Shown here piece after piece: positions 241 to 3,825 of a stretch of 10,462 nucleotides of DNA (the stretch's first letter is position 1; each line of letters starts with the position of its first letter). The position numbers were made by a program, and so were the translations under genes. The notes beneath the pieces were generated by a model. It ran no database searches. It was not told the DNA's origin and saw only the letters and a program-made list of their open reading frames with translations. The stretch is from the IMG/VR virus record IMGVR_UViG_2703718824_000015, one strand, 5' to 3'. The stretch is from a virus (taxonomy: Duplodnaviria; Heunggongvirae; Uroviricota; Caudoviricetes).

Positions 241-540
241 ATGAAATTTAAATATTCTGGCTTAACTGCCAGTGGCAACACTCACCCTAAATTTACGCGC
301 GGTGATATTTACCGCGACCAGTACGGCGGCACGGTAATGATTAAGGGCGTGGCGGGACGGTGCGTAACTTACCGCCGTGAAGGTTACGAATATGATTGCG
401 TGATGCCTGTTTATCAGTTCCGGCGTGATTTTTCTCTTGTGCAGGCCGTACCGCGTAACGTGCCCACCAGCAGGGAGAAAGCACGCGCCAATATTCAGAA
501 GATGAAAAACATGATTAACGGATTCAGGGGCAAAAAATGA
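241..540 (+). CDS. hypothetical small protein (99 aa), translationally coupled to the downstream primase gene
   Basis: ATG at 241 with GGAG about 10 nt upstream; stop TGA overlaps the ATG of the next gene (ATGA at 537-540); no recognisable motif. Confidence 0.5.
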   Translation: MKFKYSGLTASGNTHPKFTRGDIYRDQYGGTVMIKGVAGRCVTYRREGYEYDCVMPVYQFRRDFSLVQAVPRNVPTSREKARANIQKMKNMINGFRGKK

Positions 541-2291
541 AACTGGCACCGAACGTAAAACAGCAGCCACGCGGCATAAAACACAAAGAAACAGAAGTCA
601 TTATTTTTGCGGGTAGTGATGCCTGGTCACACGCGAAACAATGGCAGGAACATGACGCGCGTATGGCCGGAGATAATGAGCCTCCTGTGTGGCTTGGGGA
701 GCAGCAGTTATCAGAACTGGATAAGCTGCAAATTGTGCCGGAAGGCAGAAAATCCGTGCGCATATTCAGGGCCGGATATCTTGCGCCAGTAATGATAAAG
801 GCGATTGGTCAGAAGCTGGCGGCGGCAGGCGTACAGGATGCAAATTTTTACCCTGATGGTATGCACGGTCAGAAGGTGGAGAACTGGCGCGAATATCTGG
901 CCAGTGAGCGCCAGAATCTTTCTGATGGGCTGGTTATTGAGCTTCCTGTAAAGCAAAAGGCGCAACTTTCGCAGATGGCGGACAGTGAGCGCGCTCAACT
1001 TCTTGCCGGACGATTTGATGGCGTTTGCGTGCATCCTGAAAGTGAAATCGTTCACGTATGGCGCGGCGGGGTATGGTGTCCGGTCAGCACAATGGAACTT
1101 AGCCGCGAAATGGTGGCGATCTATTCAGAGCACAGGGCCACTTTCAGCAAGCGCGTAATCAATAACGCCGTGGAAGCGTTAAAAGTTATTGCCGAACCAA
1201 TGGGCGAGCCGTCCGGCGATTTGCTGCCGTTTGCCAATGGTGCGCTTGACCTGAAAACGGGGGAATTTTCCCCGCACACGCCGGAGAACTGGATCACCAC
1301 GCACAACGGTATTGAGTACACGCCACCAGCACCAGGGGAGAACATCCGCGATAACGCGCCAAACTTTCATAAATGGCTTGAGCACGCAGCCGGAAAAGAC
1401 CCGCGCAAGATGATGCGGATATGTGCCGCGCTGTACATGATTATGGCGAACCGGTACGACTGGCAGATGTTTATTGAGGCCACCGGAGACGGCGGGAGCG
1501 GTAAAAGTACATTCACACACATAGCCAGCCTTCTGGCAGGGAAACAGAACACGGTAAGCGCTGAAATGACATCGCTTGATGATGCTGGTGGACGTGCGCA
1601 GGTTGTCGGGAGTCGCCTTATCGTCCTGGCTGACCAGCCGAAATATACAGGCGAAGGAACGGGCATCAAGAAAATCACGGGCGGTGACCCCGTGGAAATT
1701 AACCCGAAATATGAAAAGCGTTTTACGGCGGTAATCAGGGCGGTGGTGCTGGCGACCAACAACAACCCGATGATATTCACCGAACGGGCCGGAGGTGTGG
1801 CACGTCGTCGCGTGATTTTCCGTTTCGACAATATCGTCAGTGAGGCCGAAAAAGACAGGGAGCTACCGGAAAAGATTGCGGCTGAAATCCCTGTCATTAT
1901 CCGCCGATTGCTGGCGAACTTTACCGACTCTGAGAAAGCACGGGCTTTACTACTGGAACAGCGTGACGGTGATGAAGCTCTGGCAATAAAGCAACAGACG
2001 GATCCGGTTATTGAGTTTTGCCAGTTCCTGAATTTTCTGGAGGAAGCGCGCGGCCTGATGATGGGGGGCGGTGGTGATTCAGTGAAGTACACGACCAGGA
2101 ACAGCCTTTACCGCGTCTATCTGGCGTTTATGGCATACGCAGGCAGGAGCAAACCGCTAAACGTGGCTGAGTTCAGCAAGGCCATGAAGCCAGCGGCGAA
2201 AGTTTACGGGCATGAATATATTACGCGAAAAGTTAAGGGAGTAACGCAGACCAACGCAATTACAACAGACGATTGCGACGCGTTTTTATAA
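537..2291 (+). CDS. P4/PICI-type replication initiator: primase with SF3-helicase-like P-loop NTPase domain
   Basis: 584-aa ORF with Walker A motif GDGGSGKST followed by a hydrophobic stretch ending in D (LIVLAD); overall resemblance to phage/plasmid primase P4-family C-terminal domain proteins; iteron array lies immediately downstream. Confidence 0.85.
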   Translation: MKLAPNVKQQPRGIKHKETEVIIFAGSDAWSHAKQWQEHDARMAGDNEPPVWLGEQQLSELDKLQIVPEGRKSVRIFRAGYLAPVMIKAIGQKLAAAGVQDANFYPDGMHGQKVENWREYLASERQNLSDGLVIELPVKQKAQLSQMADSERAQLLAGRFDGVCVHPESEIVHVWRGGVWCPVSTMELSREMVAIYSEHRATFSKRVINNAVEALKVIAEPMGEPSGDLLPFANGALDLKTGEFSPHTPENWITTHNGIEYTPPAPGENIRDNAPNFHKWLEHAAGKDPRKMMRICAALYMIMANRYDWQMFIEATGDGGSGKSTFTHIASLLAGKQNTVSAEMTSLDDAGGRAQVVGSRLIVLADQPKYTGEGTGIKKITGGDPVEINPKYEKRFTAVIRAVVLATNNNPMIFTERAGGVARRRVIFRFDNIVSEAEKDRELPEKIAAEIPVIIRRLLANFTDSEKARALLLEQRDGDEALAIKQQTDPVIEFCQFLNFLEEARGLMMGGGGDSVKYTTRNSLYRVYLAFMAYAGRSKPLNVAEFSKAMKPAAKVYGHEYITRKVKGVTQTNAITTDDCDAFL

Positions 2292-2304
2292 TTTTTTGTA
2301 AAAG

Positions 2305-2531
2305 CCCTCTACCCCATCTACCTGAATAAAATAAACGCATATTATTCAACATGATAAGTGGGTAGAGGGCCAGGTAGAAGGCTAATAAAAGCTCTCTACC
2401 TCTTCTACCTGATTTTATCAGTTTCAGGTAGCAGGGTAGACGGCAGGTAGAGGAGCCAAAAAAGCTATCTACCCGCTGAAAGCCGCGCCATTACTGACAT
2501 GATGAGCATTCGGGTAGATGGGTAGAGGGGG
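2305..2531. repeat. iteron array / putative replication origin (about 12 copies of a GGTAGA(G)-type heptamer, mostly in tandem pairs, in both orientations)
   Basis: Direct reading: CTCTACC 2307-2313, ATCTACC 2316-2322, GGTAGAG 2361-2367, GGTAGAA 2373-2379, CTCTACC 2394-2400, TTCTACC 2403-2409, GGTAGCA 2427-2433, GGTAGAC 2435-2441, GGTAGAG 2446-2452, ATCTACC 2467-2473, GGTAGAT 2513-2519, GGTAGAG 2521-2527; AT-rich spacers; position directly 3' of the initiator gene. Confidence 0.6.
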
Positions 2532-2576
2532 GGAGGCACAACTCAAAACTTTTTAAACGAGGGGGTAAAAATAAAT

Positions 2577-2855
2577 ATGCACACTTCAGGGAAATTTAAT
2601 AAATCACTCAAAAAACACAGAGACAGAACAGAACCGAAATATCGCGCGTTAGACATGACAGAGCACGCTTTAAAGGTGGCAATTAGAACGATAGACCGCC
2701 ACGCGGGGGAAGGATACGCGAAGGAACATCCCGACCTGATAAGCGCATTCATGACCACAGCAGCGGCAAACTTTGCCACGCTAACAGAACGGGAGATTGC
2801 CGAAGCGGAACAGGTGACAACCATCAACGTTAAAACCGGAGAGGTGGAATTATGA
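2577..2855 (+). CDS. hypothetical protein (92 aa), first gene of a small operon with the SSB-like gene
   Basis: ATG at 2577 with GAGGGGG about 10 nt upstream; stop overlaps the next ATG (ATGA at 2852-2855); no recognisable motif. Confidence 0.5.
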   Translation: MHTSGKFNKSLKKHRDRTEPKYRALDMTEHALKVAIRTIDRHAGEGYAKEHPDLISAFMTTAAANFATLTEREIAEAEQVTTINVKTGEVEL

Positions 2856-3262
2856 CGGCACAGATAGCCGCTTACGGGCGGCTGGTGGACGACCCGCAGG
2901 TAAAACAGACCAGCAAGGGCACACCGATGACGCTGGCGCGTATGGCGGTATCTTTGCCATGCAGCCAGGCACAGGACGGACAGGCGACGTTATGGTTATC
3001 GGTTATCGCATTTGGCAAACAGGCCGATTTCCTGGCTAAACATCAAAAAGGCGATGTTGCCAGCGTATCCGGCACGATGCAGGTAAGCCAGTGGACCGGA
3101 CAGAACGGGGAAACGCGGCGGGGGTATCAGGTTATTGCAGACAGCGTAATCAGTGCCCGCGCGGCACGTCCAGGCGGGAACAGACGCAAAACCACAGGCA
3201 CACAGGGTAATCAGCCACCAGCGGGAGGCGATGACCCTTACGGTGACGGTATTCCGTTCTGA
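2852..3262 (+). CDS. ssb: single-stranded DNA-binding protein-like (OB fold with acidic C-terminal tail)
   Basis: 136 aa; conserved SSB-like core pattern (GRLVDDP...W..V.AFGK.A......KGD...V.G......W....G..R) followed by a Gly/Pro/Gln-rich linker and a C-terminal DDPYGDGIPF tail resembling the canonical SSB DDDIPF tip; GGAGAGG RBS upstream. Confidence 0.65.
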   Translation: MTAQIAAYGRLVDDPQVKQTSKGTPMTLARMAVSLPCSQAQDGQATLWLSVIAFGKQADFLAKHQKGDVASVSGTMQVSQWTGQNGETRRGYQVIADSVISARAARPGGNRRKTTGTQGNQPPAGGDDPYGDGIPF

Positions 3263-3543: not shown

Positions 3544-3566
3544 AGCCGGAGCAATCCGGCTTTTTG
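3544..3566 (+). terminator. rho-independent terminator after the PerC-like gene
   Basis: Stem AGCCGGA / TCCGGCT with GCAA loop, followed by a TTTTT run extended by further T-tracts. Confidence 0.5.
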
Positions 3567-3825
3567 TTATTTTTTGTAAATTATTTGTTCGTGGTTGTTC
3601 CACGTTGTTCACTGAGCGGATCGGCATATTTTACCCGAACTGAATCATGATTATTCTCGCCCGTGGTGCCAGGACGCTGGGGCCACTTTCCCGCCTGTTA
3701 ATGTGCTCGCCAATATTCATTACCAGGCGGGAAAACGATCGGTGCGATTGCTGATTTCCTTATGAAAAACGGTTGAGTGTTTGCCGCGTCCTGGAGTTCC
3801 TTACTTAACCCCAGGACTTTTTTTT
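3567..3825 (+). promoter_or_regulatory. structured intergenic region upstream of the head operon (phased T-tract/TTGTTC repeats, 11-bp inverted repeat, hairpin plus T8); probable late promoter/control region
   Basis: TTGTTA 3564, TTGTAA 3575, TTGTTC 3585, 3595, 3605 at about 10-bp phasing; perfect inverted repeat TTTCCCGCCTG 3687-3697 / CAGGCGGGAAA 3724-3734; GTCCTGG 3788-3794 / CCAGGAC 3811-3817 followed by T8 abutting the capsid ATG. Confidence 0.3.

Follow-up and report, generated by a model that had tools for sequence, protein, structure and literature searches.

The twelve short iterons that directly follow the initiator gene in the window (our term for the whole stretch of DNA analysed, 10,462 bp) very probably constitute the cis-acting replication origin of a capsid-forming phage-inducible chromosomal island (cf-PICI). 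The feature belongs to the Gram-negative PICI pri-rep/ori replicon, and both its kind and, in effect, its sequence are already known: we regard the window array as an allele of the origin tested in EcCICFT073 (from E. coli CFT073), because the window initiator and the EcCICFT073 Pri-Rep are identical at 575 of 584 residues (98%) and the EcCICFT073 ori (in the CFT073 island) aligns with window 2270-2600 over its full length. The array would mark where a widespread phage satellite starts its own copying after induction, and the repeat core could be used as a typing marker for satellite replicons and as a predictor of islands that compete for the same initiator.

The iteron array

When both strands of the window were searched, GGTAGA was found 11 times, and all 11 copies fall within 2308-2526; a twelfth iteron is the variant GGTAGC at 2427-2432. 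The preliminary description, made from the sequence alone, had spoken of about 12 GGTAGA-type copies, mostly in adjacent pairs and in both orientations, immediately 3' of the initiator gene, and this description holds. Five iterons lie on the minus strand and seven on the plus strand (Table 1), arranged as four pairs, one triplet and one single with start-to-start distances of 8-12 bp within groups, and the first of them begins 16 bp past the initiator stop codon (2289-2291). Shuffled sequence contained 2.41 ± 1.66 copies of GGTAGA (maximum 7), none of 200 shuffles reached 11, and 11 sites placed uniformly would all land in a single 219-bp stretch with a probability of about 2e-16. No ORF of at least 50 aa crosses 2292-2542, and the array DNA is non-coding. 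Written with < for minus-strand sites, > for plus-strand sites and } for GGTAGC, order and start-to-start distances read < (9) < (44) > (12) > (22) < (9) < (23) } (8) > (11) > (22) < (45) > (8) >.

Two details of the earlier account need adjusting. The seventh base, given there as G, A or T, is nearly exact, since the core is followed by G in five copies, T in three, A in two and C in one. The spacers, described as AT-rich, are so at 2323-2360 and 2410-2426 (each 76% AT), with lower values at 2379-2394 and 2452-2467 (56-62%); the 39-bp spacer at 2474-2512, which holds a conserved GC-rich block, has only 46% AT and does not fit.

Table 1 Features of the initiator gene and the downstream array in the window
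Feature	Position	Strand	Remarks
Initiator gene	537..2291	+	584 aa; N-terminal domain aa 1-~130, D5_N + SF3 helicase core, C-terminal origin-binding domain
Predicted iteron-binding domain, coding region (aa 488-576)	1998..2264	+	phmmer match to 1KA8 chain A residues 2-89, E=8.2e-6
Whole intergenic region	2292..2576	.	Ortholog of the 'ori' deleted in EcCICFT073 plasmid pJP2028; primer mapping, aligns to L096:8975-9310 (CFT073 island)
Iterons 1-2, TCTACC at 2308, 2317	2308..2322	-	Outer pair, left half; invariant in five E. coli alleles
AT-rich spacer, candidate DNA-unwinding element	2323..2360	.	76% AT; contains degenerate IHF-like site 2344-2356
Iterons 3-4, GGTAGA at 2361, 2373	2361..2378	+	
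Iterons 5-6, TCTACC at 2395, 2404	2395..2409	-	
Centre of imperfect dyad, TGATTTTATCAGTTTCA	2410..2426	.	76% AT
Iterons 7-9, GGTAGC at 2427, GGTAGA at 2435, 2446	2427..2451	+	
Iteron 10, TCTACC, sole inverted copy of right half	2468..2473	-	
Conserved non-iteron block CTGAAAGCCGCGCCATTACTG	2476..2496	.	In long spacer of right half
Iterons 11-12, GGTAGA at 2513, 2521	2513..2526	+	Outer pair, right half; inverted repeat of iterons 1-2
AAAACTTTTT motif after last iteron pair	2545..2554	.	
Small ORF (phrog_1231, 92 aa, 2577-2855) and SSB gene	2577..3262	+	Replication-module context; no covariation of either sequence with repeat type

Several elements accompany the iterons. With a dG of -31.9 (window mean -42.2, standard deviation 3.2), the segment 2327-2356, inside the candidate unwinding element, ranks third among the least stable 30-mers of the window. 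The two least stable ones, 229-258 upstream of the DUF4222 gene and 3560-3589 upstream of the capsid gene, are both intergenic and may be promoter regions. An IHF-like site (WATCARNNNNTTR) stands 2-4 bp ahead of the first plus-strand iteron in many relatives, across iteron classes, and about 52 bp past the initiator stop in L012, L019, L090, L093 and others. Exact matches to it occur in 4 of 50 dereplicated loci (0.7 expected) and matches with at most one mismatch in 20 (11.6 expected); the copy of the window is degenerate, with two mismatches. DnaA boxes (TTATNCACA, at most one mismatch) are rarer than expected by chance, with none inside the array, and TTATCCAC, seen in the A-rich spacer of some EcCICFT073-type alleles, is absent from the window. 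The CTGAAAGCCGCGCCATTACTG block is conserved in the E. coli alleles and still recognisable as ...AAAGCC..GCCAY..TGG in Raoultella, Symbiopectobacterium, Xenorhabdus and Rosenbergiella; RNAalifold predicted no pairs, and no conserved hairpin, in 15 diverse orthologous versions of the 2474-2512 spacer. The AAAACTTTTT motif trails the last iteron pair in all GGTAGA-type origins, distant genera included, and similar A-run/T-run motifs close both crr units of P4. An Rfam scan of 2150-2700 returned only a sub-threshold plant miRNA match (22.7 bits, cut-off 46.5), an artefact of the inverted repeats in the array.

The initiator protein

The protein encoded upstream of the array is, to judge from its matches to 7OLA, 1KA8 and P4 alpha, a predicted helicase-plus-origin-binding initiator that does without the N-terminal 323 residues of alpha. 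It matches the Pfam families D5_N, DUF5906 and Pox_D5 (SF3 helicase) and, at the family cut-off, TIGR01613 (P4-family primase C-terminal region). Among solved structures, 7OLA, the SaPI5 PriRep helicase, is matched by residues 195-432 (E=4.5e-15) and 1KA8, the P4 alpha origin-binding domain, by residues 488-576 (E=8e-6); residues 141-573 share 40% identity with P4 alpha residues 324-756 (433 aa). Nothing in the window initiator aligns to P4 alpha residues 1-323, the region upstream of the helicase, which we take to be the primase domain.

The N-terminus of the window protein has other affinities. Residues 1-140 matched no Pfam or NCBIfam family, a single-sequence AlphaFold model of the N-terminal domain was of low confidence (pLDDT 59), and Foldseek searches against the PDB gave no match at E <= 0.001. 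Amino acids 1-125 (window 537-911) share 62% identity with the N-terminal part of an unrelated AAA_25/RepA-type helicase from an O157:H7 island, and a DUF927-type initiator is matched at its N-terminus as well (loci compared: L008:1902-3302 and L011:981-3125). From these alignments it looks like an uncharacterised domain common to three helicase classes.

An allele of the tested EcCICFT073 origin

The Gram-negative PICI origin has been described as two iteron sets flanking an AT-rich region, and the EcCICFT073 pri-ori segment maintains a temperature-sensitive plasmid at 44 °C, an ability abolished by deletion of pri and strongly reduced by deletion of ori (Fillol-Salom et al. 2018, ISME J, PMC6092414). 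Replication at 44 °C was weak in this assay, and the ori deletion lowered colony numbers without abolishing them (PMC6092414). According to the published primers, the homology arm of the delta-pri construct includes the first two iterons (CTGTCTACCCTGTCTACC), the delta-ori clone stops 6 nt past the pri stop, and the pri-ori clone stops about 20 nt into the next ORF. The limits of the pri-ori, pri-delta-ori and delta-pri-ori constructs coincide exactly with those of the intergenic region to which the window array aligns, and this region is the segment missing from the pri-delta-ori plasmid.

The window reproduces this organisation. Its array lies immediately 3' of the initiator gene, the pairs at 2308/2317 (minus strand) and 2361/2373 (plus strand) flank the AT-rich segment 2323-2360, and both initiator and ori are orthologous to those of the characterised element. 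The two islands share the GGTAGA core, the outer iteron pairs, the conserved block, the AAAACTTTTT/RBS end and the position of ori, as well as the flanking DUF4222 and small-ORF/SSB genes. They differ in the bases that follow the cores (GG in the window, A in EcCICFT073), in the packaging module (HK97-type in the window island, gpE/gpD-type in EcCICFT073) and in the left half of the array, grouped 2+2+2 in the window against 2+1+3 in EcCICFT073 and most relatives (2361-2409 compared with L096:9065-9115), a difference of one inverted iteron with the same total of sites. In most relatives the place of iteron 4 (2373) is taken by a minus-strand copy further right. The left half of STEC313 is arranged as in the window, with the first plus-strand core mutated to GGTATA.

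The requirement for both a cis-acting ori and the initiator has been shown for the EcCICFT073 ortholog, and by sequence it probably extends to the window allele. Against such an extension stand the two differences from the tested ori in the centre of the left half (the inverted iteron) and in the core-flanking bases.

Conservation of the repeats and covariation with the initiator

Iteron cores are preferentially preserved. Across five E. coli alleles, with nucleotide identities to window 1700-2900 down to 77.5%, 56 of the 72 iteron-core columns are invariant, against 50 of 169 in the rest of the array (Fisher p=6e-12). In Rosenbergiella, Xenorhabdus, Symbiopectobacterium, Yersinia and Raoultella, site number, order and orientation are kept while the spacers can no longer be aligned. 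The case that would have spoken against an origin, i.e., repeats absent or unconserved alongside a conserved initiator, was looked for and is not what we see: the repeats are conserved in at least seven genera and change together with the DNA-binding domain of the initiator.

This covariation was followed in 80 loci from other genomes plus the E. coli set, 82 of which had a usable C-terminus and downstream DNA. Where the C-terminal domain is at least 46% identical to that of the window protein, 22 of 23 relatives carry 6-13 copies of GGTAGA right after the gene, the sole exception being an Aeromonas locus with eight copies of the one-base variant GGTAGG; of the remaining relatives, 56 of 58 have none or one. 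Helicase identity is not predictive, as three loci with helicases 70-71% identical to that of the window (L013, L017, L018) have no copies and two at 52% (L078, L079) have 11. Among 37 dereplicated loci with a clear repeat, the median identity of the DNA-binding domain is 52% between loci with a common repeat and 35% between loci with different ones, and this domain separates the two kinds of pair with an AUC of 0.82, compared with 0.63 for the helicase. L031 and L012, with helicases 98% and DNA-binding domains 65% identical and with repeats GGTAGACAGT and GGTGAACAGT, amount to a natural domain swap.

The same position, between the same flanking genes, is occupied by AAGTGAG arrays in islands with RepA-type (AAA_25) initiators and by GGGACRAC arrays in islands with DUF927-type initiators. 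Neither flanking gene tracks the repeat: the ORF downstream of the window array is 93-95% identical to those of the AAGTGAG islands and 74% to that of EcCICFT073, which carries GGTAGA, and the DUF4222 protein follows the same pattern. The covariation rule is strong and yet not absolute, because the GGTAGAC arrays of L031 and L068 go with a P4-like DNA-binding domain that has only 31-34% identity to that of the window, and because L017 (Pseudocitrobacter faecalis) and L018 (Escherichia sp. ESNIH1), with helicases 99% and C-terminal domains 95% identical, have different dominant repeats (GGTATACA and GTGTTCAT). The latter difference reflects either a recent specificity switch via few residues or one degenerate site, GGTRTWCAT. 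The earlier proposal that the repeat consensus would define the replicon specificity of the element is supported by the covariation with the C-terminal domain, and we consider it likely.

A dyad of two six-site halves

The array is an imperfect dyad of two inverted six-repeat halves around 2410-2426. The reverse complement of 2303-2414 aligns to 2422-2533 (z=5.9 against shuffles), and an inverted-repeat search found the outer iteron pairs to be 93-100% complementary. In EcCICFT073 the symmetry of spacing is exact, with six sites per half: < 9 < 46 > 22 < 11 < 9 < on the left, 31 between the halves, and (>) > 11 > 22 < 46 > 9 > on the right. The spacings of the right half in the window (8, 11, 22, 45, 8) can be set beside those of the annotated P4 ori (10, 11, 24, 41, 10); this 3+1+2 spacing recurs in both halves in relatives such as EcCICFT073 and in the right half only in the window. 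Two relatives depart further from this plan. The Pantoea stewartii locus has the left half only, with six sites. In E. coli PapRG-04-4 (L007:3093-3408) the halves are swapped, right first, and a RepA-helicase pseudogene follows, an arrangement that suggests recombination between replicon cassettes.

A more general reading of these data is attractive, and we offer it tentatively, as a possibility that is rather less probable than its converse. The origin would be a fixed dyad of two inverted six-site units (three direct, one inverted and two direct sites, with spacings of ~9-11, 22 and 45 bp), each equivalent to a single P4 ori unit. With one site in each unit for every C-terminal domain of a helicase hexamer, the layout itself would template a head-to-head double hexamer. 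Specificity across the P4-alpha/PICI initiator family would be set mainly by the two central bases of a common GGTnnACAGT (AG here, GA in P4, AT, GC or GG elsewhere), and cassettes of DNA-binding domain plus iterons would be swapped between islands to escape incompatibility. With regard to the earlier literature, the dyad of P4-ori-like units, the related core family and the cassette exchange would, on present sequence comparisons, amount to modest refinements; they could guide the biochemistry of self-loading SF3 helicase assembly and leave the classification unchanged.

Comparison with P4, SaPI and plasmid origins

The preliminary description had likened the array to P4 alpha and PICI Rep origins, an apt comparison in view of the homology to P4 alpha, the 98% identity with EcCICFT073 Pri-Rep and the ori alignment. 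Like P4, the window has an alpha-type helicase with a C-terminal origin-binding domain, short iterons in both orientations, a right half with the 3+1+2 geometry of the P4 ori, an array placed (as is P4 crr) immediately 3' of the initiator gene, and an A-run/T-run motif after the last pair. It lacks three other features of the P4 alpha/ori-crr system: the iteron is GGTAGA and not the P4 GGTGAACA (type 1, TGTTCACC), the sites form one compact array whereas P4 ori and crr are ~4.7 kb apart, and the N-terminal primase domain is missing, as an unrelated 130-aa N-terminus stands in place of alpha residues 1-323. In sister islands from E. coli, Klebsiella, Raoultella and Citrobacter (L012, L054, L026 and L048) the dyad layout is the same but is built of the P4 type 1 iteron (GGTGAACAG = TGTTCACC), and their C-terminal domains are ~50% identical to that of P4 alpha, against 35% for the window protein.

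SaPI origins follow a rule of 6-12 penta- or hexanucleotide iterons right downstream of rep, with an AT-rich region and at least two oppositely oriented iterons per side (Qiao et al. 2022, PMC9371898). The window, with twelve hexamers, an AT-rich region and opposed pairs, conforms to this layout, and the two systems have in common an SF3 helicase with a C-terminal iteron-binding domain and iterons immediately downstream of its gene. They differ in that the window lineage is Gram-negative and its iteron sequence unrelated, and in that its C-terminal domain matches P4 alpha and, in a sequence search, no SaPI structure; SaPI origins are moreover backed by direct binding and melting data, and that of the window is inferred from sequence. 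With iteron plasmids of the pSC101, R6K and RK2 class the window shares repeated initiator sites and, next to them, an AT-rich unwinding element (a candidate in the window); an IHF site may be a further common trait. Plasmid Rep proteins, however, are not helicases and need DnaA together with DnaB/DnaC loading, and their iterons are typically direct repeats of 17-22 bp. The sites of the window are 6-9 bp long and occur in both orientations, and DnaA boxes are not enriched.

Proposed course of initiation

After helper-phage induction and excision, the initiator (SF3 helicase core, C-terminal origin-binding domain of P4-alpha type) would be made, and its C-terminal domains would bind the GGTAGA iterons, as homology and covariation suggest. 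No published EMSA or footprint for a Gram-negative PICI initiator was found in the literature, and for this reason we count the binding as inferred. By analogy with the SaPI Rep model (PMC9371898), hexamers could then assemble on the two inverted six-site halves around 2410-2426. The DNA would open at an AT-rich stretch, the best candidate by base-stacking stability being 2323-2360, between the sites at 2308/2317 and 2361/2373. The helicase would be self-loading, with no need of a separate loader, and copying of the island would then pass to the host replisome. Priming may come from the host, because the initiator is devoid of the N-terminal primase region of P4 alpha.

Alternative roles of the array

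Only one other role carries any weight, because P4 crr occupies the same position relative to alpha. The array could be mainly a copy-control, incompatibility or auxiliary cis site, of the type of P4 crr or of handcuffing iterons, that binds the initiator while initiation takes place elsewhere in the island. In P4 the iterons immediately 3' of alpha are indeed crr and not ori proper, the left half of the window array resembles a crr unit in spacing, and in EcCICFT073 the ori deletion lowered plasmid maintenance rather than abolishing it (PMC6092414). We nevertheless consider this improbable, since the 10.4-kb window contains no further GGTAGA site, the EcCICFT073 pri-ori fragment supported replication with this region only, the right half is built like the P4 ori itself, and the left ~5 kb of the island, outside the window, are dispensable in the EcCICFT073 plasmid assay. 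Still less credible, and in our view very unlikely, is that the repeats are operators at which a transcription factor regulates the genes that follow (an operon of small ORF, SSB, PerC and packaging genes). The array does lie directly upstream of this operon, with the conserved block and the A/T tract ahead of the ribosome-binding site, but a scan of 2150-2700 found no sigma-70-like promoter or terminator, and the repeats covary only with the initiator DNA-binding domain, the downstream ORF being closer to its counterparts in the AAGTGAG islands than to that of EcCICFT073. Read-through transcription could still be influenced secondarily when the initiator binds.

cf-PICIs package their own DNA with their own TerS, TerL and HNH, and terminase-binding sites are often short repeats, so that the array might be thought a packaging recognition site (a cos/pac accessory) for the small terminase of the island. 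This we exclude with hardly any reservation, because one repeat type goes with more than one packaging module and one module with more than one repeat: the GGTAGA array is found in the EcCICFT073 and Nissle 1917 islands, which have a gpE/gpD-type capsid module and no HK97-type TerL, and cf-PICIs with the HK97-type module of the window carry AAGTGAG repeats. EcCICFT073, moreover, encodes no TerS and uses helper cos sites (PMC6092414), and the array is ~5.6 kb away from terS. As for a chance or low-complexity cluster without function, the shortness of the motif is all that speaks for it; the shuffles, the tight clustering and the conservation of position, number and orientation across genera with diverged spacers rule it out, with a residual probability that is negligible.

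The host island

The gene content of the window, together with that of a related chromosomal island, indicates that the window belongs to a cf-PICI. By Pfam and PHROG, its gene order is DUF4222; D5_N/DUF5906/Pox_D5; a phrog_1231 small ORF; SSB; HK97-type capsid, prohead protease, portal, head-closure and HNH genes; and TerL. Over its whole length the window shares 96.9% identity with an island of ~15 kb that sits in tqsA of E. coli PCN033. This island begins with genes for an integrase and an AlpA-like HTH protein and lacks tail and lysis genes; the gene content of the two agrees with the published definition of cf-PICIs. A search of a phage database gave only partial matches of 75-78% identity, in the terminase and portal genes, consistent with a satellite and not a phage. 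About one third of complete E. coli genomes contain window-related DNA.

The DUF4222 gene (window 241-540) overlaps the initiator start with its stop codon at 537-540. It stands ahead of the initiator in every initiator class (D5_N, RepA and DUF927), its sequence is independent of repeat type, and its product may be a general replication-module partner. Replicon type and packaging-module type assort independently, as L008, L009, L014 and L096 show when set beside the window: the GGTAGA replicon is combined with the HK97-type module in the window and with the gpE/gpD-type module in CFT073 and Nissle, and the RepA/AAGTGAG replicon is likewise found with both.
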